Shown: positions 39,305-55,504 of the stretch, in pieces
How positions within the stretch are numbered: the first letter of the stretch is position 1
Layout of the letters: the number at the start of each line of letters is the position of its first letter
Assembly: GCA_036338695.1 (NCBI GenBank)
Contig: JAYZBQ010000022.1
Span: 11,644 to 75,643 of the forward strand
DNA length: 64,000 nucleotides
Direction: 5' to 3'
From: Myxococcota bacterium
Lineage (GTDB): Bacteria > Myxococcota > UBA4151
Notes under the pieces: model-generated
What the model was told of the DNA's origin: nothing
What the model saw: only the letters and a program-made list of their open reading frames with translations
Databases searched by the model: none
Program-made: the position numbers and the translations under genes

Positions 39305-39976
39305 TCAGTACTTAACGCTGCAGCCCCAGCTCGAGGTGCTCGCTTTGCGCACACGCTTTCCAGAAGCCAAGTCGGCGAGCGCGTTGGTCAAGTACGGCTT
39401 GTAGGACTTGCCTTTGCGGCCGCTCGGTGCGTTGTCCGGCCCGCCCTTATAAGCCAGGTTGCCCTTGGCATCGACGACGAACATATGCGGGGTCGTCTTG
39501 GCGCCGTAGGCCTTGCCGACCTGGCCCGACTCATCGATCAGGATCGGGTAGTCCATGCTCCACTTTTTCGCGGCGGCTCGGTTCACTTCGGTGCCCTGTC
39601 CCTGCCGGCCCTTGGCGCCCGAGTTGATCGCAAGCCAGACGGTGTCTTTGCTCGACGTCGTCTTGGCGAGATTTTCCAGCACGCCGCCTTTGCCGTGCGC
39701 CGAGACCACGAAGGGGCACTCAGGGTTAAACCACTCGAGCACCACTGTCTTGCCCTTGTACTGCTCCAAAGAGTGCTCTTTACCATTGAGGTCTTTGAGC
39801 TTGAACGTCGGAGCGGCGTGCCCGACCGATGCCGTCTTGCCGTGCTGATGGTTGGTCTTCGCTTTGGCGTGGGCGGGCCCGCAGCCTCCGCAGTGCGCCA
39901 AAAGAGGCGGAGCAGCCTGGGCAGCGTGCGCCCAAGATAACGCCAGGACCGGGAGAAAGACTCGAAGGATCGTCAT
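39305..39976 (-). CDS. periplasmic thioredoxin/redoxin family protein
   Basis: VVLEWFNPECPFV, AINS, YGAKTTPHMFV, WGCSVKY. Confidence 0.88.
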   Translation of the reverse strand: MTILRVFLPVLALSWAHAAQAAPPLLAHCGGCGPAHAKAKTNHQHGKTASVGHAAPTFKLKDLNGKEHSLEQYKGKTVVLEWFNPECPFVVSAHGKGGVLENLAKTTSSKDTVWLAINSGAKGRQGQGTEVNRAAAKKWSMDYPILIDESGQVGKAYGAKTTPHMFVVDAKGNLAYKGGPDNAPSGRKGKSYKPYLTNALADLASGKRVRKASTSSWGCSVKY

Positions 39977-40848
39977 GGTATATTCCCTTTCATGAGATCG
40001 GTTTCCACGGCTGTGTAGCCACTCGCCGTTTCGATGTGAAGCGTCGCCAACAAGGACGCTGGTGTCGGTGATTTAGTCCAAAGCTCCGCCGGGAGCCTGC
40101 ACAGATTGTCTCGGCAGTAAGGCGTGGCGAGCCCATCGAGGCGAAGATGGAGCGCAGCGTGCGGGAACAATCTCACGGTGGCGCCTGCGGGTCCCTCGTA
40201 AACCCGCTCGGCGCCCGCGCGCTTCCACACGACCGATCGCTCCACCGGCAGCGCCTGCCATGCCTTATCCGTTGCGCTCTCTGGCTTCAGGGCTGCTGGA
40301 TCAGCTGGCTGAACCGCAATCTTCTTCGAGCCCTTGATGCAGATCTCGGCGCACGCCAGCCAGCTCGCCTCAAGCATTAACGCTTTGGATGACTCGAGCG
40401 GCGTCGAAGGGCGCTGCAGAAAGAAGGTCGTCGCTCCATCAAAGCCGTAGGAGACGATATCGCCTGCGCTCACCTTGCGCTTGGGTGCTGGCATCCGCGC
40501 AGCGACCTGTTCACGCCGTGGCGCGAGCAACTCGAAGGCTGTGGCGAGCCCCGTATCGCCGGGGCTATGCCAGTAAATGTGCCAACCTGGCGCAGGCGTG
40601 AGCTCGACGGCGAGCTGCGGCGCATCAACTCCGGTGATGCTCGTCCACTTCGCGCGTACGGCAACCTTTGGGACCTTCTCCGGCACCGGCTGGTGGGCAC
40701 GTTTCGCCTGCCCATCGGGCGCGGCGATCGGCTGGGCAGGCGCTGCTGGCGGGACCGCAATAGACGGACGCTCTACGCAGGCTGCGGCGACCGCAGCAAA
40801 GCTCAACAAAGCCGTGCGCCAAAGCGTCAAGTAAAGCCGACTGTTCAT
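39973..40848 (-). CDS. DsbD N-terminal (DsbC-like) domain lipoprotein
   Basis: GWHIYWHSPGDTG and WLACAEIC motifs; lipobox AAAC; coupled to the redoxin gene. Confidence 0.8.
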   Translation of the reverse strand: MNSRLYLTLWRTALLSFAAVAAACVERPSIAVPPAAPAQPIAAPDGQAKRAHQPVPEKVPKVAVRAKWTSITGVDAPQLAVELTPAPGWHIYWHSPGDTGLATAFELLAPRREQVAARMPAPKRKVSAGDIVSYGFDGATTFFLQRPSTPLESSKALMLEASWLACAEICIKGSKKIAVQPADPAALKPESATDKAWQALPVERSVVWKRAGAERVYEGPAGATVRLFPHAALHLRLDGLATPYCRDNLCRLPAELWTKSPTPASLLATLHIETASGYTAVETDLMKGNIP

Positions 40849-40888
40849 GGCGCGCAAATTAGACACGAGGTGATGACACCGCAACCCA

Positions 40889-40958
40889 AAACGACCAAAT
40901 CAACTTAATTTTCCGCTTGATTCCTGGTAAATCGGCAAATAAACGACCAAACCGACTC
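40889..40958 (+). promoter_or_regulatory. putative operator: two pairs of 9-bp direct repeats
   Basis: AAACGACCA-AATCAACTT (40889-40906) and AAACGACCA-AACCGACTC (40941-40958), the second just before the GAGGAGG RBS of the SOUL gene. Confidence 0.65.
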
Positions 40959-40972
40959 ACGAGGAGGTAAAA

Positions 40973-41641
40973 ATGAACGACGCTTTGCTCTGGATCGGCG
41001 TAGGAACGGCGCTCGTCGCTGGGCTTTGGTCAGGCTACACGGTCTTTTATGAAGGTCAGCTCGAGCAGCCGGCCTACGAGACCGTGCTTCGGCAGAGCGT
41101 CTTCGAGGTCAGGCGTTACGAGCCCTTCATCGTCGCAACCACGCCGATTCGTGGTCAGGGGCGCGCGCAGATGAGCGACGGATTCCGCTCCTTAGCGGGC
41201 TATATTTTTGGGCGGAACCAACCGCGAGAAAAGCTGGCGATGACAGCGCCGGTCCTTGCGACCACCGGCGAGGCGCTCGGTATGACGGCGCCGGTGATCA
41301 CCGACCGCTCAGCCGGGCACATGGCGTTTGTGATGCCGAGCCAGCGCACGCTCGCCGACCTGCCTCGACCGACCGGGCGGGGCATCACTCTAAAGACCAC
41401 TGACTGGGGTTTGGTAGCCGCTGTGCGCTACGCCGGCTACGCCACCGAGGAGCGAGTCCAGCGTCAGACGAAGTCGCTCAATGAGTGGCTTACCAAGCAG
41501 GGCTATGAAGTGCGCGGCGAAGCGCTAAGCGCTCAATACAACTCACCGAGTGCCATGCCGCTCTTGCGTCGAAACGAGATCCTCATCCCAGTACGCCCGG
41601 TGGTTACGGTGCTGTCGAGCTCAGCTTCGGAAGCGGAATAA
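40973..41641 (+). CDS. SOUL haem-binding protein
   Basis: EQPAY, FEVRRY, GFRSLAGYIFG.N, MTAPV (x2), MAFVMP, RRNEILI. Confidence 0.92.
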   Translation: MNDALLWIGVGTALVAGLWSGYTVFYEGQLEQPAYETVLRQSVFEVRRYEPFIVATTPIRGQGRAQMSDGFRSLAGYIFGRNQPREKLAMTAPVLATTGEALGMTAPVITDRSAGHMAFVMPSQRTLADLPRPTGRGITLKTTDWGLVAAVRYAGYATEERVQRQTKSLNEWLTKQGYEVRGEALSAQYNSPSAMPLLRRNEILIPVRPVVTVLSSSASEAE

Positions 41642-42497
41642 GCAGGTTAGTGCGGCGCTGGTAAGCCGCGAACTCCTCGAGGTGACCCCATTTGGCGAGC
41701 GCTCGCTCCTGCAGCAAGGGGACGCCGCTGCCGCGTGTCAGCAGCCCATAGACAAACACAGGCGAGCAGATCGCGAGCCACTGCAGCCCCTCGTAGTGGC
41801 CAAGTCCGGCTACGAAGAGCCCGGTCCATAACAGGATCTCACCGAAATAGTTGGGGTGCCGGGCGTAGGCCCACAACCCCTCATCGATCCAGCGCTCGCC
41901 CGATGCATTGCGCTGACGAAACCGCTTTTTCTGCTGATCTGCTACGACCTCAATCGTCCACCCAACCGTCCAGATGCACAGGCCGATCACCACCCAGGCG
42001 TCGAGCACAAATGGGCGCTTTGAGGTCAAGAGGATGATCACCGCAAACGAGGTCGTAAAGATCCACATCGCCTGGGCGGTCCACGCCATCACAAAGCGCG
42101 GGAACGAGTGCTTAATCTCATCAAAGCGTCCGTCCTTGCCCGTCTCGTGGATCCGGCGCGTCAAGAAGATGACGAGCCGCAAGGACCACAAGCCGACCGC
42201 CAGCGCGATCAGGAAGTGGTGGACTCCGGCCTGACCATTGGCGTGCGCCACCCAGAGACTCAGCCCAGCCATCAACAGAAACGTCGAGGTGCCCACCAGA
42301 TCGTAAAAGCGTTCACTCGAGAGCAAGTAGGCGGGGACAAACGCAAGCCACTGCAACCCCACAGCGATCAGCATGGCCAGCACGATGGCAGGCAAACCGC
42401 CCAGGCTGGCGTGACTGTGACCGCTGACCGCTGCGCTCAAGCCAAACAAGCCCAAGCAACAAAGGGCCGTGAACAGGTGCGCGGTGCTCGATTTCAC
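41604..42497 (-). CDS. DUF1295 / steroid 5-alpha-reductase-like membrane protein
   Basis: ERFYDLVG, KDGRFDEIK, ADQQK, GLWAYARHPNYFGE, SGVPLL. Confidence 0.9.
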   Translation of the reverse strand: MKSSTAHLFTALCCLGLFGLSAAVSGHSHASLGGLPAIVLAMLIAVGLQWLAFVPAYLLSSERFYDLVGTSTFLLMAGLSLWVAHANGQAGVHHFLIALAVGLWSLRLVIFLTRRIHETGKDGRFDEIKHSFPRFVMAWTAQAMWIFTTSFAVIILLTSKRPFVLDAWVVIGLCIWTVGWTIEVVADQQKKRFRQRNASGERWIDEGLWAYARHPNYFGEILLWTGLFVAGLGHYEGLQWLAICSPVFVYGLLTRGSGVPLLQERALAKWGHLEEFAAYQRRTNLLIPLPKLSSTAP

Positions 42498-42537
42498 AAC
42501 ACGACTCCTCGTCGGCGTTCGGGTGTTTTGCACCGAT

Positions 42538-42617
42538 TGGCCGATTATTTATCTTTTTTATGAACAGATTGGTCGATTTAATCAATCAGATTATATAATA
42601 AACGTATAAATCGACTT
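42538..42617. promoter_or_regulatory. divergent promoter with -10 box and 9-bp repeat operator
   Basis: TATAAT at 42594-42599 followed directly by AAACGTATA-AATCGACTT (42600-42617); minus-strand AATCGACCA (42570-42578) and AATCGGCCA (42538-42546). Confidence 0.65.
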
Positions 42618-42631
42618 TTAGGTGGACCCTC

Positions 42632-43534
42632 ATGAAAAGCGTGATCACGGGTGCGACGGGCTTGATCGGTATGCGGCTGGCTCAAGGCTTGGACCAACCG
42701 ACCATACTCAGCCGGAACCCGGAGCGAGCGCAGCGCCTGATGCCCGGCGCGCAGGCTGTTGGGTGGGCACCGGAGCGGGAAGCAGCGCCGGTCAGTGCGC
42801 TGGAGGGGCGAGACGTAGTGTTTCACCTCGCTGGCGAGCCCGTGGCGTCGGGACGCTGGAGCGATGAAAAGAAGCGCAGAATACGTGATAGCCGAGTGAT
42901 CGGGACCCAGCGCCTCCTTGAGGGGCTGGCAGCCTGCGAACATCCGCCAAAGACGCTTGTTGCAGCTTCCGCTGTGGGATTCTACGGTGATCGGGGTGAC
43001 ACCGTCCTCGACGAATCCTCATCGATGGGCGAGGGCTACCTGGCCGAGGTCTGCCGCGACTGGGAGACCGAGGCGCTTCGCGCCGAGAGCCTCGGCATCC
43101 GTGTCGTCTGCTTACGCATCGGCATCGTCCTCGCAGAAGACGGCGGTGCGCTCGAGCAGATGCTCCCTATCTTCCGACTCGGAGGGGGCGGAAAGCTGGG
43201 GAGCGGTCAGCAATGGATGCCCTGGATTCATGTCGACGACGTAGTCGGGCTGTTGCTTTGGTCCGCCACCAACCCGGAGGCGAGCGGGGTCTACAATGGC
43301 GTGGCTCCCGAGCCTGTCCGTAACGCGGAGTTCACCAAATCGCTGGCGGCAGCGATCAACCGCCCGGCGTTTATGCCGGTACCCCGCCTCGGTCTACGGC
43401 TTCTGTTTGGCGAGAAAACATCGATCATCATGGCGTCGCAGAACATCCAACCCCGGCGCGCCTTAGGTGACGGATATCGCTTCGCCTTCCCCCAACTCGA
43501 CGGAGCGCTGAACACCCTTTTTGGTGCGGCGTGA
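42632..43534 (+). CDS. TIGR01777 family NAD-dependent epimerase/oxidoreductase
   Basis: ITGATGLIG, HLAGE, SRVIGT, ASAVGFYG, GSGQQWMPWIH. Confidence 0.92.
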   Translation: MKSVITGATGLIGMRLAQGLDQPTILSRNPERAQRLMPGAQAVGWAPEREAAPVSALEGRDVVFHLAGEPVASGRWSDEKKRRIRDSRVIGTQRLLEGLAACEHPPKTLVAASAVGFYGDRGDTVLDESSSMGEGYLAEVCRDWETEALRAESLGIRVVCLRIGIVLAEDGGALEQMLPIFRLGGGGKLGSGQQWMPWIHVDDVVGLLLWSATNPEASGVYNGVAPEPVRNAEFTKSLAAAINRPAFMPVPRLGLRLLFGEKTSIIMASQNIQPRRALGDGYRFAFPQLDGALNTLFGAA

Positions 43535-44922
43535 GGCGCACCCTGCTGTGGTTTCGCGGTAAGGACTTACGCGTCGAAGACCACGAGGGGCTTCACCGAG
43601 CGCTCGCCGCAGACGAGGTCATCCCCGTCTTTGTCCTCGACCCGTATTTCTTCGATCCCGAGCGCGCCCAAGCGCTACCGCACCGAATGCAGTACTTGCT
43701 CGATGCGCTCGAAGAGCTCGCCGGTGACCTGCGCCAGCTCGGCAGCGAGCTCATCATCGAGCAGGGGCGAAGCGTCGACGTCATCCCGACGCTGGCTGCT
43801 GAGTGGGCTGTTGACGAGGTCATTGCGCAGGGTTGGACTGAGGGCTTCGGGCGCCAGCGCGACGCCCGCATTGAGGCGCAGCTGAGCTGCCCGCTGACGC
43901 TAGTTGATGGCGAAACGATGGTCTCACCGGGCTCGGTACGGACGCAACAAGGCGGAGCCTACAGCGTCTTTACGCCGTACTGGCGACGCTTCATGGCGAC
44001 GGCGCAGATCGCCCCACCACGACCGCGCCCTTCGCAGCTCCCTCCCCTTCCATCAGGCTGCGAAAGCTCGGCGCGCATCCCCTCGCTCGACGAGCTCGGG
44101 ATCCAGCGAAATCACCAGCTCCTCAAAGGAGGCTCAACCGCTGCGAAAGAGCGACTTTCGGGCTTTCTCTCGGCACGCGTCGGGTCGTACAAAACGGCGC
44201 GCAACCGACCCGACAAGGACGGCTCGAGCCGCTTAGGTCCTGACCTCAAGTTCGGCGCCCTCTCGGCGCGCCAGATCTGGGCGGCGGCGCAGCAACCGGA
44301 ATTACGCTCCGATTCGGGGTCCTTTCGGCGGCAGCTGGTCTGGCGAGAATTTGCGCACGACCTCGTGTGGAACCAGCCCAGGCTTCTCACCGAACCCTTT
44401 CGGCCCAAGTTTCGTGAATTCCCTTGGATTGGGCTCGACGAGCACTGGGAGGCGTGGGTCGAAGGCCGTACAGGCTACCCCATCGTCGACGCAGCGTCTC
44501 GCCAGCTCCTCGCCACCGGCTTCATCCCGAACCGAGCACGCATGATCACGGCGAGCTTCCTGACCAAGCATCTGCTCATCGACTATCGGCGGGGCGAGGC
44601 GCATTTTATGAAGTGGCTCACCGATGGTGACTGGATCCAGAACAATTTTGGGTGGCAGTGGTCAGCCGGCTGCGGGTGTGACGCGCAGCCGTATTTTCGC
44701 GTCTTCAATCCGATCCTCCAGGGCAAAAAGTTTGACCCCCAGGGCACCTACGTCCGGCGATGGGTTCCTGAACTCGAAGGCGTGCCTAAAAAGTGGATCC
44801 ACACGCCTTGGCTCGCCGAGCGCTCGCTCTTCGCTGCCGATTACCCGGCGCCGATCGTCGATCATGCGACCGCACGTAAGCGCTTCTTGGAACATGCGAA
44901 GGCGTATCTAGCGACCGTCTGA
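43531..44922 (+). CDS. phrB: deoxyribodipyrimidine photolyase (cryptochrome/photolyase family)
   Basis: WFR.KDLRVEDH, VFTPY, SRLGPDLKFG, WREF, GRTGYPIVDA, NRARM, GWQWSAGCGCDAQPYFRVFNP. Confidence 0.93.
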   Translation: MRRTLLWFRGKDLRVEDHEGLHRALAADEVIPVFVLDPYFFDPERAQALPHRMQYLLDALEELAGDLRQLGSELIIEQGRSVDVIPTLAAEWAVDEVIAQGWTEGFGRQRDARIEAQLSCPLTLVDGETMVSPGSVRTQQGGAYSVFTPYWRRFMATAQIAPPRPRPSQLPPLPSGCESSARIPSLDELGIQRNHQLLKGGSTAAKERLSGFLSARVGSYKTARNRPDKDGSSRLGPDLKFGALSARQIWAAAQQPELRSDSGSFRRQLVWREFAHDLVWNQPRLLTEPFRPKFREFPWIGLDEHWEAWVEGRTGYPIVDAASRQLLATGFIPNRARMITASFLTKHLLIDYRRGEAHFMKWLTDGDWIQNNFGWQWSAGCGCDAQPYFRVFNPILQGKKFDPQGTYVRRWVPELEGVPKKWIHTPWLAERSLFAADYPAPIVDHATARKRFLEHAKAYLATV

Positions 44923-45432
44923 ACCGCGCTGCCGTCGAAACACACGAACAGCACGCACAGGCGTCTTGCCTGGGACCTTGAAGGTGACCTCTTCGTGAAA
45001 AACCACGTCACTGATTCGACGCCGTGCGGTCGTCATCAACCCCTGCGGAAAGCGATCCTCCGTCAGGAGCGTATCCCCCTTGCCCAGCCAGCGAGATCGA
45101 CGCTCAGTCGTCCCGCCGTCGAGATTTTTGCCGATCGCCCAGCGGTTATCCACCGGCAGGACGATCGCCTCATCGGTGAAGCGCGTGATGACACGAAAGC
45201 TGATCCCGCGACGGGTAGCTCGAATAACCTGCTTGACCGCCAAAGAGCTCATCACCTTCCGAGCGATCCAGCCGTAGCCCATCGCCTGGAGTACAGGGTC
45301 CAGCGAGGTCGAGCTTTGTGCGTCGAGCGACCAGGTCCCCTCCATCCAGACCGCCGGTTTCGCCTGCGCCGGCTGGGCAACCGAGCACACGCCCAGCGCC
45401 AGCGCACAGGCTAGATGCACCGTGGTCCTCAT
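44908..45432 (-). CDS. secreted FABP/calycin-fold lipid- or bilin-binding protein
   Basis: Signal peptide ending AQA; 'EGTWSL..SS..LD..LQAMGYGWIARK' matches the FABP N-terminal signature; C-terminal 'AVRVFRR'. Confidence 0.6.
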   Translation of the reverse strand: MRTTVHLACALALGVCSVAQPAQAKPAVWMEGTWSLDAQSSTSLDPVLQAMGYGWIARKVMSSLAVKQVIRATRRGISFRVITRFTDEAIVLPVDNRWAIGKNLDGGTTERRSRWLGKGDTLLTEDRFPQGLMTTARRRISDVVFHEEVTFKVPGKTPVRAVRVFRRQRGSDGR

Positions 45433-46271
45433 CGGCTGCTCTGCGTTTGAGTCAGCTCTTGTGTCAGCGCCAGACAGTCGATGACTCTGCTGCGCGTCAC
45501 GTAGTGGCGCCCTCCCGCGCAGATCCTCTTCATCGCCACGTCATGATCTTGGGCGAACAGCGACCTTTGAGCGTGCGCCAAAGGCACCTCATCCCCATCG
45601 CAAAAGAGCCGGCGGTTCACCACTCGGTAGGTGGCTCGCTCATCCACTACGTCGACCTCGAAGCGGCGCTCAAAGCCCTCACCTGAGCGCAGCTCAAGCT
45701 CTGCTCGCCCATCGGCTAAGTCGAGCTCGGCACGGACAAATCCGGGCTCCACCCAGCGTTGGCGAATACGCTGAATCGGGCTGTACTCGGCGATGCAGTG
45801 AAGGCGCGCCAAGGCGGCGCCAAAAAAATAGTCAGGCGTCTCTCGGCCATTGCCCGGTTTGGTCATCACGACGCGCACGTGCTCTGGCCGACCGATGCGC
45901 TGCCGCAGCGCTTGATGCCAAGGCGCGAGCAGTTCGATATGCTCCACGTGCAGCAAGCGCTCCTGTCGCTGCGCCAACGAGAACAATGCCTGCGCAGCCA
46001 CAGGCTCGAGCGCCACCGGAAACTCCACCACGACATCGCAGTCAGCCTCAAGAGCGCGCCGCACCTGCGCCTCATGCTCAGCAGAGGGCGAGCAGATGGC
46101 GACGGCCTCGACGCGTTGGATCAGGTCATCAAAACCGACCTCTGGAGCTTCAAACTCGTGTGCAAACCGACCTCGGCAGACGGCGCTGAGGGTCGCACCT
46201 GGATCCAGAGCGATCGCTCGGGCACGGGCGCGCCCGGCACGGCCAACGCCAACGACCCCCCAACGCACCAA
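45429..46271 (-). CDS. biliverdin reductase A-like oxidoreductase (Gfo/Idh/MocA family)
   Basis: VVGVGRAG, ICS.S..H, VVVEFP, LHVEHIELL, ALARL, GEGFER, LFAQD, RVIDCL all track BVR-A motifs. Confidence 0.75.
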   Translation of the reverse strand: MVRWGVVGVGRAGRARARAIALDPGATLSAVCRGRFAHEFEAPEVGFDDLIQRVEAVAICSPSAEHEAQVRRALEADCDVVVEFPVALEPVAAQALFSLAQRQERLLHVEHIELLAPWHQALRQRIGRPEHVRVVMTKPGNGRETPDYFFGAALARLHCIAEYSPIQRIRQRWVEPGFVRAELDLADGRAELELRSGEGFERRFEVDVVDERATYRVVNRRLFCDGDEVPLAHAQRSLFAQDHDVAMKRICAGGRHYVTRSRVIDCLALTQELTQTQSSR

Positions 46272-46290
46272 CGCTAGTCCGCCTACCCGG

Positions 46291-46803
46291 TCACGCCGAG
46301 CGCTTCGCCGGTGCCGCTTCCCGGGGCGGGAAGAGCTGATGCATCATCTCGTGCCGGTACCGAAAGATCCGGTCCACGTCGTTGCGCACAAACAAGCGCT
46401 GAATGATGGAGCCACCGAAGACACGGTAGATCACGCGGTCGGTGCACATCGTCCCGCCGTCTTGCTCAACGAACTCATGGGTATGGTGCCACTGACGGTA
46501 CGGCCCGCGTAGTTGCTGGTCGACGAAGCTGTGCGGCGGGTTCCAGTCGGTGATCTCGGTGCGCCACTTCAGCGGGATCCCCCGCAGCCGAATCCGGTAG
46601 TCGATCAGCGCGCCGGTTTTCATCTCGATCGGCTTGGGCGTCAGCACCTCGAACCGTAGGAACTCGGGCGTCAAAACCTGCAAGTTGTAGGCGTCTTGAA
46701 AGAACGCGAAGACCTCGTCGATCGGATAATCTAAAAAGCAGTGCGACTCGAGCAGCCATGACCCATCCGGCTGCCTTGTTTGCGTTACGTCGTTGTTGCT
46801 CAT
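46291..46803 (-). CDS. SRPBCC family protein
   Basis: VFAFF.DAYNL..LTP, WRTEIT, FVDQQLRGPYRQWHHTHEF, IFRYRH. Confidence 0.9.
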   Translation of the reverse strand: MSNNDVTQTRQPDGSWLLESHCFLDYPIDEVFAFFQDAYNLQVLTPEFLRFEVLTPKPIEMKTGALIDYRIRLRGIPLKWRTEITDWNPPHSFVDQQLRGPYRQWHHTHEFVEQDGGTMCTDRVIYRVFGGSIIQRLFVRNDVDRIFRYRHEMMHQLFPPREAAPAKRSA

Positions 46804-47357
46804 CAGCTCAACTCCTTCTCATCACGTTGTTCTAAAAGCGCTCGAGCGCGCTCGCTCAGGAGCCCGAGCGCAATCGACCAGACGGCGCCGACCGCAAGAG
46901 CTCCTTCTAAGCCATGGATCTCCATACACCCGAGCCGCTCTCCACCGAGATAGGCGGCGGGCCCACCAAAGGCGCCTACTGCCGTCGCCAGCCCGCGGGT
47001 CCGAAGCAGCGCGAACTGGCTGTGCAGCGCCGTGGCGCCAAAACCAGCCCACAGCGAGATCATCCACAAAGGCACGCCCGCGAGCCGCATGCCCCCGAAA
47101 TAGGTGACCGACCCGGTCGCCGCCAAGGTGGCGTCGGTGGCGAGTCCCACCCCGACCGCCCAGACCAGCATCAGGAGCTCTTGCCGCAGCGCTCGACGCT
47201 CAAACCAGAGATGAACGGCAACGAACATCGCCATCGCGCTCGGCCGCACCCACCCGACACCGAGCACACACGCCCACCAAGCCGCCTGATGGCTAAGCCA
47301 TTGCGGCGCGCCGCCCCATCGCCAGATCATCGGACGCTGAAGGACGTCGGCTACCAT
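46803..47357 (-). CDS. DUF2878 family membrane protein
   Basis: HQAAWWACVLG, PLWMISLWAGF, GGPAAYLGG.RLG. Confidence 0.8.
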   Translation of the reverse strand: MVADVLQRPMIWRWGGAPQWLSHQAAWWACVLGVGWVRPSAMAMFVAVHLWFERRALRQELLMLVWAVGVGLATDATLAATGSVTYFGGMRLAGVPLWMISLWAGFGATALHSQFALLRTRGLATAVGAFGGPAAYLGGERLGCMEIHGLEGALAVGAVWSIALGLLSERARALLEQRDEKELS

Positions 47358-48304
47358 AAGCTCGACGGGTACGGATCCAGGTAGACCTGCCCAGCAAGCC
47401 ACGGATGCGCCCCTTTATCCAACACCTGGTGTTTGAGGAGCGTGAGCGGCGCGAGCAGCGACGTCTGGCCGTTTCCGTAGGCTCGGATCGCCTCCATCGT
47501 GTGCTGCCGACAGACACGGCTCAAGCGCTTTGAAACGTAGCCCATGATGTGCTGGAGCACGTTGACGTGGCGCCCGCGCGTTAGCCGATGCCCCATCACC
47601 GACTGCGCCTGGCCCAAATGATCTGCCAGCTGTTCCTGGGTGAGCGCACCTTTCAAGCTCGCCACCTGCCGACCGAGCGCTCGCTGAGCGCCAGGATGAT
47701 GCGCCATGTACAGCAGCTTGTGCGAAGCATACTCTGCCTGAAGCGCAGCGACCGATGGGTCCTCGCGCAACGCTTTGAGCCGCCTGCTCGTAAAAATCCG
47801 ATGCAGAAACTGCTGACGCAACATGGCGTCTTTGAGCCAACCCTCTTCCGCGCGCGCGAGCGCCGGGAAGTCGTTGCGCAGACGGTGCGTCAAGAAGCCG
47901 GCATCGCGCGCCACGACCTGCGCTTTTCGCTCGACGCCGGCGTATACCTTGACGCCGCTGATCCCGCAGGTGGGCGAGCCGCGCTTGAGTAAGAAACCAT
48001 CGAGGTCCAAACGAGACAGCCGATCGCTGATCGATTCGAGGGTCGAGTCCATGAGCGCGGTGTGATCTACGCCGCTCGGTGACTCGACGAGCGCGTTACG
48101 GGTCTCGCCGCGCAGCACTCGCACGACGGGTCTAGGGACACCCATACCCGCTTCCACTTCCGGGCATACCGGGACGAGTTCGACGTGCTGAGCGAGGACG
48201 TCCATCACGAAGTTATCTCGCTGGTGCCCGCCGTTGTAGCGGACCTGCTCGCCCATCAGGCAGGCGCTGATGCCGACGCGCGGCGCAAGACGATCTGCTG
48301 TCAT
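47351..48304 (-). CDS. YbgA family protein (DUF523 + DUF1722)
   Basis: GISACLMGEQVRYNGGH, VCPEVEAGMGVPR, SPTCG, HKLLYMAH, NVLQHIMGY, QVYLDPYP. Confidence 0.92.
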   Translation of the reverse strand: MTADRLAPRVGISACLMGEQVRYNGGHQRDNFVMDVLAQHVELVPVCPEVEAGMGVPRPVVRVLRGETRNALVESPSGVDHTALMDSTLESISDRLSRLDLDGFLLKRGSPTCGISGVKVYAGVERKAQVVARDAGFLTHRLRNDFPALARAEEGWLKDAMLRQQFLHRIFTSRRLKALREDPSVAALQAEYASHKLLYMAHHPGAQRALGRQVASLKGALTQEQLADHLGQAQSVMGHRLTRGRHVNVLQHIMGYVSKRLSRVCRQHTMEAIRAYGNGQTSLLAPLTLLKHQVLDKGAHPWLAGQVYLDPYPSSLW

Positions 48305-48306
48305 AA

Positions 48307-48387
48307 AACCACCCAAAACGTTCGCTTCGCCTAGATATTAGCGCCCAAACTGCGTATTTACAAACCAACAAACGACCAAAACAACTT
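48307..48387 (+). promoter_or_regulatory. putative operator: two pairs of 9-bp direct repeats
   Basis: AACCACCCA-AAACGTTCG (48307-48324) and AAACGACCA-AAACAACTT (48370-48387). Confidence 0.65.
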
Positions 48388-48389
48388 TT

Positions 48390-49832: not shown

Positions 49833-50006
49833 ATGGACGCGATGACGCGCAGCCTGACGCTACAACTTGAGAGCCTATACGAAGAGCGCGCGTTTTTAGC
49901 GCAAGAGATCGGCGTGAGCGATGCACGCGACATTGTCGCGATGGTGCGCAGTCTGGAGGCGCAGCTGAACGACCTCTACGCACAGGTTGATCAACCGCAA
50001 AAATAA
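49833..50006 (+). CDS. small helical protein with two SLxxQLxxLY repeats
   Basis: 57 aa; MTRSLTLQLESLYEE / MVRSLEAQLNDLYAQ; directly upstream of and co-oriented with HTH-PYP. Confidence 0.6.
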   Translation: MDAMTRSLTLQLESLYEERAFLAQEIGVSDARDIVAMVRSLEAQLNDLYAQVDQPQK

Positions 50007-50035
50007 TAGCCTTTTTGCACGTTTTGGCTTGCCGT

Positions 50036-50053
50036 AAAGGTCCAAATAGTCCA
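50036..50053 (+). promoter_or_regulatory. putative autoregulatory operator upstream of HTH-PYP
   Basis: AAAGGTCCA-AATAGTCCA 9-bp pair; minus-strand AAACGTGCA at 50016-50024. Confidence 0.5.
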
Positions 50054-50081
50054 GCATAGCGACGTCTGGACAAAGAACATC

Positions 50082-50630
50082 ATGGCTGATCAGCATTTAA
50101 CGAGCACGAGAGTTGCGGAAATCCTTGGGGTTACGGCGTCAACGGTCAAACGTTGGGCTGACGAAGGCTCCTTGCCTTGCGAGCGCACCGCTGGGGGACA
50201 CCGGCGCTTCTTGGCGTCCGAGGTCGCACGCTTCCGACAAACAGAAGCAGACACCAGCGTGGCGCATCTGGCCACGCTAAGCGAAGAAGAGTTTGACGCG
50301 CTCCCGTACGGCGCGATCGGGCTCGACGAGCAAGGGGTGATCATCCGCTACAATGCAACCGAGGCGACGTTTTCGAACCACAAGGCGGACCAAGTTCTCG
50401 GGAGGAACTTCTTCACGCAGGTCGCTCCCTGCACCAACAACCGACTCGTCTTTGGCGCTTTTCGTGATGGGATCGCGTCGGGCTCGATGGACGTGAAGAT
50501 CCCCTACACCTTCACTTATGTGATGAAGCCGACCAACGTCGTGCTTCACATGGTGCGCTGCCAAGATACCCGGACCAACTGGCTGCTAGTCCACCATAAT
50601 ACGGATTCGACCGGCTCACTTATCGTGTAA
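50082..50630 (+). CDS. BldC/excisionase-type HTH fused to a photoactive yellow protein (PYP) domain
   Basis: HTH 'LTSTRVAEILGVTASTVKRWADEG.L...RTAGGHRRF'; PYP 'FDALPYGAIGLD..G.I.RYNATE...GRNFFTQVAPCT...YTFTYVMKPTNV' with Tyr42, Glu46, Cys69 and Met100 equivalents. Confidence 0.9.
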   Translation: MADQHLTSTRVAEILGVTASTVKRWADEGSLPCERTAGGHRRFLASEVARFRQTEADTSVAHLATLSEEEFDALPYGAIGLDEQGVIIRYNATEATFSNHKADQVLGRNFFTQVAPCTNNRLVFGAFRDGIASGSMDVKIPYTFTYVMKPTNVVLHMVRCQDTRTNWLLVHHNTDSTGSLIV

Positions 50631-50667
50631 GGGCTCCCCGCCGCGACGGCGAGGAGGAGCACGAACG

Positions 50668-51588
50668 ATGAACAAGAGCACCCTTTGGCTTGGCGCCTTG
50701 CTGGTCACTGCTTGCGGTGAGCCCTCTGAACAACCCAGCGACACCAACCGCCCCGACCTGAGCGACCTGCTCGACGCCGGGCCTGTAAGTTCGCCCGACG
50801 CAGGCGCTTCAGCAGACGCAGGCGTCGCGCCGAGCGACGCGGGGCCAAGCCCCATCGATGCCGGCGGCAACGTCGAGCCAGACGCCGGACCTCCCGCTCC
50901 GGTCGCTACCGAGCAACGCTACGCCATGAAGGCGGTCTCTGCGGTGCAACAGCGAAACCCCAGCCCGCTGGGGAACGAAGAGGTGCGCGTGACGACGACA
51001 CAGTACGTGCTGCTTGAGAGCGAGCGACTTGAAGAGGACTTCAGCTGGACAGAGACACTGTGCAGCATCACAACCAGCGAGGCGCGTTACCGGTTTGGGA
51101 TCCGCGCCAGCACCAGCTACCCGGCCGCCTTTGTGGATCACTTCCCGACCTTCGAGCGGACCGGGACGTGGACCGAAGCAGGCGAGTTCTCCGCAGGCCC
51201 GATGGCCTCGGTCGTCGGCGCTGAGCTGGCCAACCCGCTACGCGACCCACTACCCACCGAGCCAGGCGCAGGCGGGGAGATCGACTCCGACGAAGATGGT
51301 CATCCCGGCGTCACGGTCAACGTCGGCGGCGCCGTCTCGGGTTCCGTTTATGTAGCGCAGCGAAGCATCATATCGCTGCGCGGCCGAGAGCGCGACGGCG
51401 GCCGGATCGAAGGTCTCTGGCAATCCAATGACGAGCAGGTCGTTCTTGGCGCAAGCAGTGGGATCTTGAACCGACAGGTGGAGCGCCGCCGAGATCCGGA
51501 GGACGCTGCGAGCTTCTTTATTATGACCCCGATCGATGACGCGTGGGATTGCGACGACATCACCGCTCGGATCGACGAGCTGTTCTAA
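50668..51588 (+). CDS. lipoprotein of unknown function
   Basis: GAGGAG RBS; lipobox VTAC; DAG linker; DSDEDGHPGVTV loop. Confidence 0.7.
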   Translation: MNKSTLWLGALLVTACGEPSEQPSDTNRPDLSDLLDAGPVSSPDAGASADAGVAPSDAGPSPIDAGGNVEPDAGPPAPVATEQRYAMKAVSAVQQRNPSPLGNEEVRVTTTQYVLLESERLEEDFSWTETLCSITTSEARYRFGIRASTSYPAAFVDHFPTFERTGTWTEAGEFSAGPMASVVGAELANPLRDPLPTEPGAGGEIDSDEDGHPGVTVNVGGAVSGSVYVAQRSIISLRGRERDGGRIEGLWQSNDEQVVLGASSGILNRQVERRRDPEDAASFFIMTPIDDAWDCDDITARIDELF

Positions 51589-51989
51589 GCCGCCTCAACG
51601 GACGGCTCAGCGCCGTAAGCCCAGCGAGCGGACGCAGCGACCGTGGCGGTGAGCACGACGCCCCAGACGATATCGACCACGACCAGGCCTGATGGCCAGG
51701 CTTCGATGACGGCCCAGTTGGTGAACTCAAAGGTCGCGTAGGCGAACCAACCGAGCAGCGCGCCGCGCGCCGCCGCCATCCGCACGCTCGCAGCGGGGAG
51801 CGCGCCGAAGAAGACCACCACGGCGATGTATTGAACGTAGAAAAGCGCGGCAGCGCCGACCACGGTCTCTTGCGCTCGCAGCGGGCCGAGCTGTTCGTTG
51901 TAAAAGGATGCGGCGAAGACACCAAGCCAAACCAAATCCACGACCACCATGACCAACGCAGCCACGACAACGGCTCGAACAGAACGCAT
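51585..51989 (-). CDS. DUF2177 family membrane protein
   Basis: DLVWLG...FY..QLG, AYATFEFTNWA...WP...VDIVWG. Confidence 0.88.
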   Translation of the reverse strand: MRSVRAVVVAALVMVVVDLVWLGVFAASFYNEQLGPLRAQETVVGAAALFYVQYIAVVVFFGALPAASVRMAAARGALLGWFAYATFEFTNWAVIEAWPSGLVVVDIVWGVVLTATVAASARWAYGAEPSVEAA

Positions 51990-52035
51990 GGGCTTCCTCC
52001 TTGTCCAGCGAGCTCAAAAGAACGAATTGGATATT

Positions 52036-52097
52036 TATCCGATTTGAACTTGAACGAATTTTTCGATTGTGTATAGATAAACCGCATAAATCGACCA
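52036..52097. promoter_or_regulatory. divergent promoter with 9-bp repeat operators on both strands
   Basis: Plus strand AACCGCATA-AATCGACCA (52080-52097); minus strand AATCGAAAA-ATTCGTTCA (52051-52068) and AATCGGATA (52036-52044). Confidence 0.65.
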
Positions 52098-52106
52098 AGG
52101 CGCCCC

Positions 52107-52775
52107 ATGAAGAAGCCACAAAGCAGTTTTGAATCGACTATTTCGTTCAGCGCCTCAGCGACCGTCCCGACACGCTACGGTGACTGGGAGATGAGCACTT
52201 TTCACGACGCTCAAGGCGTCGAGCATGTCTGCCTAACGCACGGCGATGTCGCCGATCACGACGACGTCCTGTGCCGCTTTCACTCGGCTTGCATGACGGG
52301 TGAGATCTTCGGCTCAAAGCGTTGTGACTGCGGCGAGCAGCTCGATGGAGCGTTTCGCCGCATCCAGAAGGCAGGGCGGGGCGTGATCGTCTACCTCGCG
52401 CAGGAAGGGCGCGGGATCGGCCTGACCAACAAGCTGCGCGCCTACGACGTGCAGAACCGCGGCTACGACACGGTGGACGCCAACCGAGCGCTCGGCCTAC
52501 CAGATGACATCCGGAGCTACGACGACGCCAACGCAATCCTCAAGCTGCTCGGCGTGCGCAGCGTCCGGTTGATGACCAACAACCCTGACAAGCTGCGCAG
52601 CGTGCGCGAGGCGGGCTTACTCGCCGACCGCGAGGCGCACCTTCTGCCCGTGGGCGCGCTCGCCCAGCGCTACGTCCAGACCAAGCAGCATCGCATGGGT
52701 CACCTCAACGAAGGCAGCGCCGACAGTCAGCCCCTGTTCCCCAGCGAGTTCGAGACCCTGCTCAACGCCTCGTAA
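52107..52775 (+). CDS. ribA: GTP cyclohydrolase II
   Basis: HSACMTGEIFGSKRCDCGEQL, QEGRGIGL.NK, DTVDAN, MTNNPDK, RMGH. Confidence 0.95.
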   Translation: MKKPQSSFESTISFSASATVPTRYGDWEMSTFHDAQGVEHVCLTHGDVADHDDVLCRFHSACMTGEIFGSKRCDCGEQLDGAFRRIQKAGRGVIVYLAQEGRGIGLTNKLRAYDVQNRGYDTVDANRALGLPDDIRSYDDANAILKLLGVRSVRLMTNNPDKLRSVREAGLLADREAHLLPVGALAQRYVQTKQHRMGHLNEGSADSQPLFPSEFETLLNAS

Positions 52776-52778
52776 ACG

Positions 52779-53765
52779 ATGCCGTCTACACCATCCAATC
52801 GGACGCTGGCGGTTATCGGCGCAGGCGTCTCCGGCCTCACCGCCGCGGCGCAGCTGCAGCGATCTGGGTGGAGCGTTCGCCTCTTTGACAAAGGGCGCGG
52901 GCCAGGCGGGCGCGCTGCGACAAGGCGCAGCGCTTCGGGTGGCTTTGACCACGGCGCTCCGTATTTTACGGTGCAGACTGCGCAGGGGCGAGCGCTGGTC
53001 GAGCGCTTGCACGCTCAAGGGGTTGTGGCGCCGTGGTCCGGCCGCTTCGCAAGCGTGGACGCAGCCAACGCGTTCCATGAATCGCCAGCGCATGAACGGT
53101 GGGTCGGACGACCCAAAATGAGCGCGCTCGGTCGGTATCTGAGCCGTGATCTCGAGGTGAATTTAAGCACGCGTATCGTGACGCTCGGTGGCAAACCTGG
53201 CGCCTGGACCCTCGTCGACGAAAACGAGCACCACCACGGCTCCTTTCATGCTGTGCTCATGAGCTGTCCCGGGCCGCAGGCTGCAACGCTCCTACCCAAA
53301 CCCAGCGCGCTGCACGCGCGCTGCCTCGCGATGCGCTATGCCGTCTGCTGGGCTGGTCTCGTCGAGCTTACCGCTCAAGAGCCGTTTGCCTGGGACAGCC
53401 TCTCGTTCGAAGCCGGCACGCTCGGCGAGGCGTTTCGCAGCAACAGCAAACCGGAACGCAGCGGCGCCGAGCGATGGGTGGTCCACGCAGCGCCTGACTG
53501 GAGCTCAGCACATCGCCACGACGCGCCGGAGGTCGTGGGTCAAGCCCTGACCGAAGCCTTTGAAGAAGCTACCGGACAAAAGGTGCACACGATGACCGTG
53601 CACCGATGGCTCTACGCTCGAGCGCTCCAAAACGAGGGCGAGGTTGCTCTTATCGACAGCGAGCGACGGCTGGGCTTATGCGGCGACGGGATGACCGGTG
53701 GAGGCGTTGAAGCGGCATACATTAGCGGGCTCGAGCTGGCCAAGCAGGTGCAGGCGCATTTCTAA
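52779..53765 (+). CDS. renalase-like NAD(P)/FAD-dependent oxidoreductase
   Basis: IGAGVSG, DKGRGPGGR, FDHGAPYF, HRWLYA, CGD, VEAAYISG. Confidence 0.9.
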   Translation: MPSTPSNRTLAVIGAGVSGLTAAAQLQRSGWSVRLFDKGRGPGGRAATRRSASGGFDHGAPYFTVQTAQGRALVERLHAQGVVAPWSGRFASVDAANAFHESPAHERWVGRPKMSALGRYLSRDLEVNLSTRIVTLGGKPGAWTLVDENEHHHGSFHAVLMSCPGPQAATLLPKPSALHARCLAMRYAVCWAGLVELTAQEPFAWDSLSFEAGTLGEAFRSNSKPERSGAERWVVHAAPDWSSAHRHDAPEVVGQALTEAFEEATGQKVHTMTVHRWLYARALQNEGEVALIDSERRLGLCGDGMTGGGVEAAYISGLELAKQVQAHF

Positions 53766-53783
53766 GCGCAGCAGCCGAATCCC

Positions 53784-54221
53784 TCAGACGTTTTGAGGAG
53801 GCGGCTCAGAAGCTCGCCGGCTCGGGCGCCAGATATCGGCTGCGACCAGGACACCCGCTGCGATCACGAACTGAAGCGGCATGCGCGCCCACAAGAGCCA
53901 GCGCTCACGCGCCATCCCGTCAATGTAGACGTCAGCGACCAACATGTAGATGTTGGCTGGATACACGGCGACCAGCAGCGCCAGCAGCCCCCACCCGGCC
54001 AACCGCCGGGTACGCGACCAAAGCAAACCCACACCGCCTGCGACCTCAAAGAATCCGCTGATGTAGACCAGCTCAAGCGGAGCTGGCAGAAAAGGCGGCA
54101 CGATCGGCACGAACAAGCCAGGGTTACGAAAATGTTCGACCCCGACAGCGATGAAGGACAGCCCAACCAAAAGCGTGATGAACTGCGCTTTCAAGGGGCG
54201 GCTCATGGCGTGATCAGACAT
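53784..54221 (-). CDS. DoxX-like membrane protein
   Basis: GVEHF..P, IVPPFLP, SGFFEV, AVYPANI, ARMPLQ; start uncertain (in-frame ATG also at 54338). Confidence 0.8.
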   Translation of the reverse strand: MSDHAMSRPLKAQFITLLVGLSFIAVGVEHFRNPGLFVPIVPPFLPAPLELVYISGFFEVAGGVGLLWSRTRRLAGWGLLALLVAVYPANIYMLVADVYIDGMARERWLLWARMPLQFVIAAGVLVAADIWRPSRRASEPPPQNV

Positions 54222-54337
54222 CGGCTGCTCCCCTCTCAAGCTGCGCGCAGAGCGACGAGCAGCCGATGGCGCCGAAGCGCCCTCCCCCTTTTGCTCACTC
54301 GAGGCGCCCCGCTCCTTCGCTGCGCGAATAAATACCA

Positions 54338-54355
54338 TGAACGTTTTGTTCGATT
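54338..54355 (-). promoter_or_regulatory. putative operator: 9-bp direct repeat pair
   Basis: Minus strand reads AATCGAACA-AAACGTTCA, in the AT-rich divergent region before hemH. Confidence 0.6.
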
Positions 54356-54451
54356 TTAATATCAAAATCCAGCTAATATACGACCGCTCCCTGCGATCCG
54401 CCCACAGATGCGCCGCCTAAAGAGCACAGGCTTAGACAGGATACACAGACC

Positions 54452-55504
54452 ATGAACCCACGACGCACCGGCGTTCTGCTGACTCAACTCGGGACCCCCA
54501 AAGCTGCGACACAAGCCGCTGTCCGCCCCTTTCTTCGCGAGTTTTTGTCCGATCCGCGCGTGATCGACATCCCAGGGCTTGCGCGCGCAGCGCTCGTCAA
54601 CCTGATCATCGTCCCCTTTCGCACGCCGAAGTCGACCAAAATCTACCAAGAGCTCTGGGAAGTCGGCGGGGGTGAGTCACCGATTATGATGCACACGGAG
54701 GCTCTGACCGATGCGCTCAACGAGCGGCTCAAGGGCGACCACATCACCGTGCACATGGCGATGCGCTACCAAGCGCCGTCGATGGACGACGTGCTCGAGA
54801 CCATGCGGCTCGAGAACTACGACAAGATCGTGATCCTGCCGATGTTCCCCCACTACGCCTCGTCAAGCACCGGGACGGCGATCCAAAAGGCAATGGAGAT
54901 CATCTCGAAGTGGTGGGTGATCCCGGAGCTCGAGGTGGTCAATCAGTTCTACGACGAGGCCTTCTACATCGACACCGTGGTCGAGCAAGCCCGCAAGCAC
55001 GACCTGAGCACCTTTGATCACGTCGTCATCAGCTACCACGGGTTACCCGATCGACACGTCGACAAAGTCTATGAGGGCAAAGAGAACTTGTGCCGGGACC
55101 ACCACTGCGACGAGCGCGTCGATGAAGAGAACAAGTTCTGCTACAAAGCGACCGCTTACGAAACATCGAGATTAATCGCTGAAAAGCTAGGTCTAGAGCC
55201 CCATCAATACACCACCAGCTTCCAGTCTCGACTCGACGATAAATGGCTCACACCCTTTAGCGATGAGGTCATCGAGCAGCTCGCTAAAGACGGGAAGAAA
55301 CGTCTCTTGGTGTTCTCGCCTGCCTTCGTCGCGGACTGCTTAGAGACCTTGATCGAGGTGGGCTCAGAGTACCAAGAAATCTTCGAGGAGCATGGCGGCG
55401 AACACGTCCAGCTCGTCGAGAGCTGCAACACCGAGCCGACCTGGGTGGAGGGCTTGAGCGACTTCATCCGGCAGCGGCGAGTACGCCCGGCCAAGAGCGT
55501 TTAG
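54452..55504 (+). CDS. hemH: ferrochelatase
   Basis: LGTP, FLSDPRVID, MRY..P, PHYASSSTG, SYHGLP, FQSR, FVADCLETL.E. Confidence 0.96.
   Translation: MNPRRTGVLLTQLGTPKAATQAAVRPFLREFLSDPRVIDIPGLARAALVNLIIVPFRTPKSTKIYQELWEVGGGESPIMMHTEALTDALNERLKGDHITVHMAMRYQAPSMDDVLETMRLENYDKIVILPMFPHYASSSTGTAIQKAMEIISKWWVIPELEVVNQFYDEAFYIDTVVEQARKHDLSTFDHVVISYHGLPDRHVDKVYEGKENLCRDHHCDERVDEENKFCYKATAYETSRLIAEKLGLEPHQYTTSFQSRLDDKWLTPFSDEVIEQLAKDGKKRLLVFSPAFVADCLETLIEVGSEYQEIFEEHGGEHVQLVESCNTEPTWVEGLSDFIRQRRVRPAKSV

Follow-up and report, generated by a model that had tools for sequence, protein, structure and literature searches.

A helix-turn-helix fused to a photoactive yellow protein domain in Myxococcota: a predicted blue-light transcription factor with candidate operators and a putative partner protein

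Photoactive yellow protein (PYP) has been a model photoreceptor for decades. In the accessible text of Dohmen et al. (2025; PMC12826048) its signal transduction chain is called "an important gap in knowledge", and the available portion of Kim et al. (2021) gives the H. halophila PYP as a protein with no identified downstream partner. The locus described here, from a Myxococcota bacterium (GenBank assembly GCA_036338695.1, contig JAYZBQ010000022.1), raises the question of whether a PYP can pass its signal straight to DNA. A 64,000-bp stretch of this contig (positions 11,644 to 75,643; referred to below as the window) carries an open reading frame (ORF), here named HTH-PYP, in which a helix-turn-helix (HTH) precedes a PYP domain. 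A natural PYP wired to a DNA-binding domain would have a directly readable output, and with predicted operators and a regulon in hand the long-open question of PYP output becomes directly testable, hence the high interest of this gene.

The HTH-PYP protein and its family

The HTH-PYP product is a BldC-type winged HTH joined to a PYP domain in which the residues that hold p-coumaric acid are kept, a resemblance well beyond chance. This architecture, put forward in an original prediction made from the DNA letters alone, was confirmed using the ORF list, Pfam, NCBIfam, alignment to PDB entries, and superposition of an AlphaFold2 model. Pfam placed HTH_17 at residues 6 to 53 (E value, 5.8e−10), above its cutoff, as were MerR_1 and MerR, and a PAS domain at residues 71 to 161. 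The predicted HTH string (LT..VA..LGV...TV.RWA..G.L...RT.GGHRR) is present and aligns to BldC (6ama; E value, 1e−6), and the NCBIfam model NF033787 (HTH_BldC) scored 54.3 bits, under its subfamily cutoff of 77. The photo_yellow model TIGR02373 aligned to residues 62 to 171 over profile positions 13 to 122 of 124; the match starts no earlier than position 13, as the HTH takes the place of the first 12 PYP residues. A phmmer search of the PDB mapped residues 63 to 170 onto positions 15 to 122 of H. halophila PYP (E value, ∼4e−25). In alignments to 1gsx and other PYP structures, Tyr42, Glu46, Cys69, and Met100 correspond to Y90, E94, C117 (in VAPCT), and M148, as had been claimed for all four.

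The AlphaFold2 model, built from 53 family members, had a mean pLDDT of 85.6. Its winged HTH consists of helices at residues 8 to 15 and 19 to 28, a strand at 41 to 44, and a helix at 45 to 56, the last of which runs into two short helices (60 to 65 and 68 to 72) that form the PYP N-terminal cap, with the PAS core after them; residues 51 to 60 were modeled with low confidence. The PYP part superimposed on solved PYPs with a root mean square deviation of 1.2 to 1.5 Å over 112 to 116 columns (target-normalized TM score, 0.85 to 0.93). In this model roughly the first dozen residues of free PYP are replaced and the HTH sits within about three residues of the cap, which agrees with the earlier proposal that the HTH is attached at the N-terminal end of PYP.

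HTH-PYP belongs to a real and uncharacterized family, and its kind would be that of one-component photoregulators. A word-indexed search of 5.8 billion proteins returned 228 matches at an E value of ≤0.001. Among the matches listed, 66 of 120 clusters at 90% identity had the fusion architecture (P0001 to P0066), with 82 to 100% query coverage, the HTH families, and lengths of 151 to 227 amino acids. Across 185,579 species genomes, nine loci (L001 to L009) encode both domains in one frame. An even sample of the phylum yielded a match spanning both domains in 10 of 301 genomes, and the fusion was found in all six genomes of the order to which the window belongs, the only ones of its class in the collection; the search of this class and order for fusion-less genomes therefore gave no negative control. 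In 53 aligned fusion proteins Y90, E94, C117, the KRW of the recognition helix, and the GGHRR wing were invariant, and at least 90% of them have the equivalents of Pro68 and Thr70. The PYP-domain tree puts 51 of the 53 single-domain PYPs into one well-supported clade (95/99) that excludes the fused ones; the other two were long-branch rows, one of them on a 546-bp contig. The fusion may have had a single origin, as judged from this tree.

Database entries for the family carry the name "photoactive yellow protein" or "MerR family regulator", and full-text literature searches found no paper describing an HTH-PYP protein. The terms "MerR", "HTH", and "DNA-binding" are absent from the main text of Xing et al. 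(2022; PMC9664959), where data set S3 has them only in gene-neighborhood columns, and from the main text of Dohmen et al. (2025). The latter, in its accessible text, defines multidomain PYPs as longer than 200 amino acids, which excludes nearly all of the HTH-PYP family; its supplementary table has one protein parsed as "HTH_17 PAS", and its sequence list has a second entry with "helix-turn-helix". The original prediction had left open whether the architecture was already catalogued: it is, to the extent of database names and one table row, but no paper discussing it was found.

Variants of the arrangement were also seen. Locus L004 (10001 to 11199) holds two tandem HTH-PYP paralogues, which follow homologues of the epimerase/DUF1731, SRPBCC, and YbgA genes of the window. 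Two HTH-PYP matches (G010:C148:5507-6028 and G080:C61:12605-13129) have one in-frame stop each (TAG and TGA, respectively) and could be pseudogenes, assembly errors, or cases of recoding. In L010 (5672 to 8488), and likewise in L011 to L013, all from Thermoanaerobaculia metagenome-assembled genomes, a gene for a protein with the same HTH is divergent from two or three tandem stand-alone PYP genes. By eye only, the C-terminal part of this HTH protein resembles a B12-binding domain and an ORF of L010 resembles an EAL domain. These loci, from another phylum, may show the parts of HTH-PYP in an unfused state.

Candidate operators and the small neighboring protein

The divergent spacers of the gene cluster around HTH-PYP have a GC content of 32 to 44% in a window of 64% and have a word in common, AAATCGACCAA (core, AAAYCGRCCAA). 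With up to one mismatch, AAATCGACCAA matched 15 times in the window against 2.45 expected, a number reached in none of 100 shuffles. The words form tandem 9-mers with the consensus AAAnCGACY, for example, AAAACGACC AAATCAACT, TAAACGACC AAACCGACT, and AAACCGCAT AAATCGACC. A strict tandem pattern, AAAHCGACYAAAHCGAC, with at most one mismatch was found 10 times in the 3.36-Mb host genome and once for the reversed control.

The candidate operators of the window are given in Table 1. The spacer between DUF1295 and the epimerase-photolyase operon is 98 bp with a GC content of 32%, and its sites are kept in the syntenic locus L009, which also has sites in the same YbgA-like/Omp85-like spacer. At the start of the MauE-like gene, a weak tandem (AAATCGAAC AAAACGTTC) covers positions 54339 to 54356. 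At the spot of the repeat in front of HTH-PYP itself, the same-genus genome G006 carries AAAACGACC AAAAAGACC, 58 bp upstream of its HTH-PYP; L009 has AAAACGAAC AAAAAGTTC, and two family-level relatives (G009 and G010) have sites 120 to 140 bp upstream of the small ORF described below. Several candidate sites lie 9 to 30 bp upstream of start codons, which would fit promoter-overlapping operators and hence repression.

Beyond the window, high-scoring intergenic sites flank genes for a glutathione peroxidase, an FAA hydrolase with a GST, a flavodoxin-type reductase, YceI with a Zn-ADH, and a fasciclin protein. A second light-type cluster (G000:C72:28400-42000; L093) encodes a fatty-acid desaturase with a TetR regulator, an SDR, an NmrA-like protein, a cryptochrome/photolyase-related protein (DPRP), and an amine oxidase, and three of its spacers have tandem sites. 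Two tandem AAAnCGACY sites stand in front of a bacteriorhodopsin-like gene (Bac_rhodopsin; E value, 1.7e−43; G000:C80:5180-6096; L095), so a microbial rhodopsin may belong to the predicted light regulon. Pairs of motif and gene recur in three other HTH-PYP genomes: SOUL (L116) and DUF2177 (L136) with tandem sites upstream in G004, fasciclin in G005, and a CarboxypepD_reg protein and one more in G001.

A further high-scoring tandem (AAAACGACC AAAACGATC, 38271 to 38288) falls inside an ORF with no Pfam family (37992 to 39302); the site is intragenic unless the true start of this ORF lies further downstream. A 15-bp direct repeat upstream of HTH-PYP (GGTCCAAATAGTCCA) was considered as an operator and rejected, being unique in the window with five near-matches against 3.4 expected.

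Which protein could read these repeats was approached through the genes beside them. Comparison of coordinates identified five genes for this HTH that have the strict motif at a distance of no more than ∼100 bp. Four of the five (G022, G015, G063, and G185) encode HTH_17 plus a B12-binding domain in 267 to 282 amino acids, the CarH type, and the fifth is the HTH-PYP of G006. The four, from other genomes, are all of the HTH_17-plus-B12 genes inspected. All five cases were picked for motif proximity but are not put down to chance, as a position ≤100 bp from one gene in a genome of 5 to 10 Mb is very unlikely. BldC sites are head-to-tail direct repeats with the consensus AATTXXXX(C), e.g., AATTCGGTC (Schumacher et al.), and the residues of BldC with roles in DNA contact and in the head-to-tail interface have been assigned (PMC5859096). 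Mapped onto the fusion, the DNA contacts Thr27, Arg30, Trp31, His46, and Arg47/48 are T21, R24, W25, H40, and R41/R42, and the interface residues Phe21, Val23, Thr42, Leu43, and Gly44 are L15, V17, T36, A37, and G38, so that the position of Leu43 stays nonpolar. Most of these positions are invariant in the 53 fusion proteins; S20 and D27 stand in place of Lys26 and Lys33.

The host genome encodes only two HTH_17 proteins, the second of which has no GGHRR wing. Four B12-binding matches were identified, in frames of 1,209, 509, 191, and 1,156 amino acids; judged by frame length, with one locus of the four read (a mutase C-terminus followed by a MeaB-like gene), no CarH-like B12 protein was found in this genome, nor was any BLUF protein identified. 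The closest solved relative of the HTH is CtMerR (8jbs; E value, 5e−9), an adenosylcobalamin (AdoCbl) photoreceptor tetramer according to the accessible part of PMC11796333, and CarH (5c8d) was a weak PDB match (E value, 1.6e−4). The format of the sites, the BldC residues, the motif at genes for the same HTH, the recurring motif-gene pairs, and the lack of another candidate found in the host point to a sensor swap on one HTH and operator scaffold.

The only neighbor in the window that travels with the fusion gene, as judged by tblastn against L001 to L013, is a small ORF immediately upstream of it, a conserved putative partner protein without earlier description. It adjoins HTH-PYP in eight of the nine full-length loci; the two genes share a strand in the window, L001, and L009 and are divergent in L002, L003, and L005 to L008; tblastn did not find it in L004. 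The protein (6.5 kDa; pI 4.3) was predicted to form two helices (residues 3 to 26 and 28 to 52; pLDDT, 78), and its conserved core of ∼45 amino acids, with the motif QLxxLYxER..L...LG..D...I..MVRSLEAQLxDLY, often begins at the start codon. Neither Pfam nor NCBIfam yielded a usable family at E values of up to 10, and the same was true of the ESM Atlas. A profile search retrieved 230 clusters of 27 to 133 amino acids, all "hypothetical", and a scan of 1.84 billion representatives retrieved 496 proteins with this module at an E value of ≤0.001. Many of the latter carry 2 to 14 tandem copies in up to 1,290 amino acids (P0241 to P0370; e.g., P0269 and P0242), and no Pfam family covers the repeat module of ∼55 amino acids.

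Of the 130 representatives newly listed, 50 end in a PYP-like domain with the module N-terminal to it (phmmer E values, 7e−32 to 2e−4). Such fusions tie the module to the PYP fold by the domain-fusion ("Rosetta stone") argument. None of the 50 PYP-like domains has Tyr42, Glu46, and Cys69 together, and the Cys is present in only one; set against the invariance of this triad in the 53 HTH-PYP proteins, this argues that the triad is under selection specifically in the fusion family. The small acidic two-helix protein is therefore a putative partner of the PYP domain, as inferred from adjacency and domain fusion. A predicted complex of HTH-PYP and the small protein scored 0.00 in a run with no controls and says nothing either way. 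The conserved small protein is a candidate PYP-binding module and, if this is true, a concrete candidate for the long-sought downstream signaling partner of PYP.

A putative light regulator and its alternatives

We consider it probable that HTH-PYP is a one-component blue-light transcription factor on the LitR/CarH logic, with PYP in place of the B12-binding domain, that multimerizes on AAAnCGACY operators and works with a small partner. The HTH would bind the tandem 9-bp direct repeats head to tail, as BldC does on AATTnnnnC repeats, in the promoter regions of a photo-oxidative-stress regulon comprising two photolyase/cryptochrome-family clusters, rhodopsin, ribA, SOUL, peroxiredoxin, glutathione peroxidase, and others, with a weaker repeat ahead of its own gene. 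In the dark, HTH-PYP would multimerize on the repeats and repress, the direction being the least certain part. In blue light the chromophore would isomerize and the HTH-bearing N-terminal cap unfold, so that the DNA-bound array would loosen and the regulon be induced; the acidic two-helix protein may tune or relay the switch as partner of the PYP domain. The original prediction of a PYP-based counterpart of CarH/LitR gains comparative support from the B12 fusions with the same HTH subfamily, the tandem 9-bp repeat upstream of both types of fusion gene, and the repeats at photolyase, cryptochrome-like, rhodopsin, and oxidative-stress genes of the host. A more far-reaching version, possible but held only tentatively, is that HTH-PYP constitutes a sixth LitR/CarH class that arose by a B12-to-PYP swap on the same HTH and operator and acts as the master blue-light switch of a class-level marine lineage, with the small ORF as the first of a new family of PYP partners (up to 14 tandem copies fused to chromophore-less PYP-like domains).

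HTH-PYP was compared with several characterized systems. The class I, AdoB12-dependent CarH/LitR photoregulators, above all the HTH_17-type member CtMerR (8jbs/8jbt), likewise combine an N-terminal MerR-like winged HTH with a C-terminal domain for light sensing (predicted in the case of HTH-PYP) in one small polypeptide, and within the phylum the tandem repeat also precedes HTH-plus-B12 genes. CarH differs in sensing green or UV-visible light through a four-helix bundle and a Rossmann B12 module, where HTH-PYP is predicted to use PYP and p-coumaric acid to sense blue light; HTH-PYP had no B12-binding Pfam match and scored 12.7 bits against the CarH model NF052513 (cutoff, 400). With BldC of Streptomyces it has in common the winged HTH, the TV(K/T)RW recognition helix, the GGHRR wing, and candidate sites made of 9-bp direct repeats with an AT-rich block, CG, and a final C/T (compare AATTCGGTC). 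BldC, however, is a stand-alone protein of 68 residues without a sensor, whereas a 120-residue PYP domain follows the HTH here, and the AT block is AATT in BldC sites and AAAn in these repeats.

The PYP half resembles H. halophila PYP in its PAS fold with an N-terminal cap and in Tyr42, Glu46, Cys69, and Met100. Unlike known multidomain PYPs (Ppr, Ppd, MCP-PYP, and PYP-V4R), HTH-PYP has a DNA-binding domain at the PYP N-terminus. EL222-type LOV-HTH proteins likewise couple a PAS-family photosensor to an HTH in one polypeptide, but in EL222 a flavin-binding LOV domain is N-terminal and a LuxR-type HTH is C-terminal, i.e., another HTH class in the opposite domain order. The PYP photocycle is reversible and AdoCbl photolysis is not. 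At 20 kDa, HTH-PYP would be a compact switch for blue light and might find use in optogenetics beside CarH and EL222. The five LitR/CarH classes (I to V) distinguished by C-terminal domain in the accessible text of Maruyama et al. (2022; PMC9758184) include none with PYP, and the LitR regulons given there (phrB, cryB, SDR, FAD oxidoreductase, and GTP cyclohydrolase) resemble the putative regulon. Neither Xing et al. (2022) nor Dohmen et al. (2025), in the main text as far as available, describes a DNA-binding output as a partner of a PYP domain. For the small ORF, the nearest counterpart by description only is PBP of Rhodobacter capsulatus, a dimer of 16 kDa and pI 3.9 that binds Rc-PYP light-dependently (bioRxiv 10.1101/2021.06.01.446672, accessible part). 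Both proteins are small and acidic; they differ in size (16 versus 6.5 kDa), and partner binding here is putative.

Several observations weigh against light regulation by HTH-PYP, and they are best considered with the explanations that they favor. The PYP-like domain could be a ligand- or redox-sensing PAS or an apo form, the protein then being a transcription factor but not a light sensor. This would accord with the chromophore-less PYP-like domains that exist in the same gene neighborhood family, and with the profile scores: of the models proposed for checking, HTH_17 and MerR passed their cutoffs, but TIGR02373 scored 111.8 bits, under its equivalog cutoff of 143.05. Two substitutions, both read correctly in the original prediction, replace Thr50 with S98 and Arg52 with H100. 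Chromophore supply is a further point. No tyrosine ammonia-lyase (TAL) was found in the host genome (3.36 Mb; 93.6% complete), its only aromatic lyase being HutH (697 bits against a cutoff of 539), and no dedicated p-coumarate-CoA ligase (pCL; TIGR02372, best score 50 bits against 334.7). Nor did 65 ORFs within ∼6.5 kb of the fusion at eight other loci include a lyase, a ligase, or a photolyase. As the six loci other than L009 and L004 likewise had none of the three among the ORFs scanned over that distance, adjacency to light genes is specific to a lineage, and the expectation that homologues would be associated with photolyase was mostly not borne out, holding for the lineage of the window and partly for L004. 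However, according to the accessible text of Xing et al. (2022; PMC9664959), a TAL gene is close to only ∼10% of functional pyp genes and a pCL gene to ∼30%, and p-coumarate uptake followed by one of the generic AMP-binding ligases, of which the host genome has nine matches, is a conceivable source. The invariance of Tyr42, Glu46, and Cys69 in the 53 fusions, with Pro68 and Thr70 nearly so, against none of the 50 chromophore-less relatives, and the light-related genes of the putative regulon make a non-sensing domain quite unlikely.

Alternatively, HTH-PYP might sense light while another protein controls the AAAnCGACY regulon, its own role being confined to its operon or to protein contacts. 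The link between motif and regulator is one of association, and the repeat at the window's own gene is degenerate, with two mismatches per 9-mer. The strict motif occurs in 63 of the 301 phylum genomes and the fusion in only 10, the strict pattern has no match in the same-genus genome G007, and the second light cluster contains a TetR gene of its own. A looser pattern (AAANCGRCNAAANCGRC) stayed near its reversed control in four of five other HTH-PYP genomes (28 versus 30, 13 versus 8, 32 versus 29, and 2 versus 1) and gave 32 versus 14 in G003; it was too degenerate and was replaced by the stricter one. A σ70 promoter scan of positions 40800 to 54500 predicted no sites, and repression or activation is thus not readable from site position. 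The wider spread of the motif is nevertheless accounted for by fusion-less genomes that carry it at B12 genes with the same HTH, the 9-bp head-to-tail format is the one solved for BldC, the DNA-contact residues of BldC are conserved, and the host genome has no other protein with this HTH. Control by a different regulator is on this evidence rather unlikely. It is highly improbable that the HTH_17 domain marks an excisionase, a recombination directionality factor, or a RacA-like chromosome anchor rather than a promoter regulator. The excise model TIGR01764 was passed (35.3 bits; cutoff, 28.8) and RacA is among the PDB matches, but TIGR01764 is a "domain"-type model, so that a pass names the domain and not the function; the Pfam scan of surrounding genes found no integrase, recombinase, or phage family, the chromosomal context is kept across the genus, and all six genomes of the class have the gene.

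If HTH-PYP is the light regulator that we favor, it would be a case of modular evolution, with B12 swapped for PYP as the sensor on one HTH and operator scaffold, and a pointer to the way in which light is coupled to DNA repair and to the expression of rhodopsin in a marine lineage with small genomes.

Gene surroundings and traces in marine data sets

The features of the locus are collected in Table 1. An Omp85-like gene on the forward strand, to the right of the YbgA-like operon, also belongs to the cluster, and L009 shows synteny over the entire cluster and has a fusion protein of 82% identity.

Table 1. Coordinates of the HTH-PYP locus, its candidate operators, and neighboring genes in the window
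Feature	Position	Strand	Remarks
HTH-PYP gene	50082..50630	+	ATG start; 182 amino acids plus stop
Winged HTH of HTH-PYP	50082-50249 (residues 1-56)	+	
Linker of HTH-PYP	residues 57-59		Short, low confidence
PYP domain of HTH-PYP	50259-50597 (residues 60-172)	+	
C117 codon	50430-50432	+	Cys69 equivalent
Small ORF, putative partner	49833..50006	+	57 amino acids; ATG start common to L009; ORF listing gives GTG form 49794-50006
Degenerate tandem AAAACGTGC AAAAAGGCT	50008..50025	-	Spacer of small ORF and HTH-PYP; candidate autoregulatory operator
Candidate operator, five 9-mers: AAAACGACC AAATCAACT ... AAATCGGCA .. TAAACGACC AAACCGACT	40888..40957	+	Divergent spacer of DsbD_N/redoxin operon (-) and SOUL (+)
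Candidate operators TAATCGGCC, AAATCGACC (-); TAAACGTAT AAATCGACT (+)	42539..42616		Spacer of DUF1295 (-) and epimerase-photolyase operon (+)
Candidate operator AAACCAACA.. CAAACGACC AAAACAACT	48362..48386	+	Between YbgA-like operon (-) and Omp85-like gene (+)
Candidate operators AAATCGGAT (-); AAACCGCAT AAATCGACC (+)	52037..52096		Between DUF2177 (-) and ribA (+)
Weak candidate, single 9-mer AAATCGAAC	54348..54356	-	Start of MauE-like gene, before ferrochelatase
Redoxin/AhpC and DsbD_N (-), SOUL haem-binding (+), DUF1295 (-)	39305..42533	.	Putative regulon members (Pfam)
Epimerase/DUF1731 and DNA photolyase (FAD_binding_7; E value, 2e−79)	42632..44922	+	Putative regulon members
174-amino-acid ORF, GFO_IDH oxidoreductase, SRPBCC/polyketide cyclase, DUF2878, YbgA-like (2-thiouracil desulfurase and DUF1722)	44908..48316	-	Putative regulon
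DUF2177 (-), GTP cyclohydrolase II ribA (+), FAD/amine-oxidase-like oxidoreductase (+), MauE-like membrane protein (-), ferrochelatase (+)	51585..55504		Putative regulon

Near-identical DNA was found in marine and seawater metagenome runs of several studies. A planktonic lineage of marine origin is suggested by these runs in combination with the genome size of 3.4 Mb and the presence of a rhodopsin gene. Contigs from RNA libraries of two marine runs contain parts of the HTH-PYP gene (at least 99% identity in X15 and 95 to 99% in X18), and a salt-marsh RNA run contains relatives of 90 to 97% identity in which the small ORF is covered too. As RNA libraries can hold DNA, and contigs come without transcript ends, these matches give only a faint hint of expression, and stretches that they leave uncovered carry no information.

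Two other features of the surroundings were recorded. A gene for a D12-class N6-adenine DNA methyltransferase (36680 to 37519; E value, 7.6e−30) lies ∼13 kb upstream of the fusion. Large proteins with DUF4215 and RCC1 repeats recur in the window (57047 to 59581 and 63140 to 64000) and on G000 contigs C58 and C80, and two such proteins adjoin tandem AAAnCGACY sites (L092 and L095).

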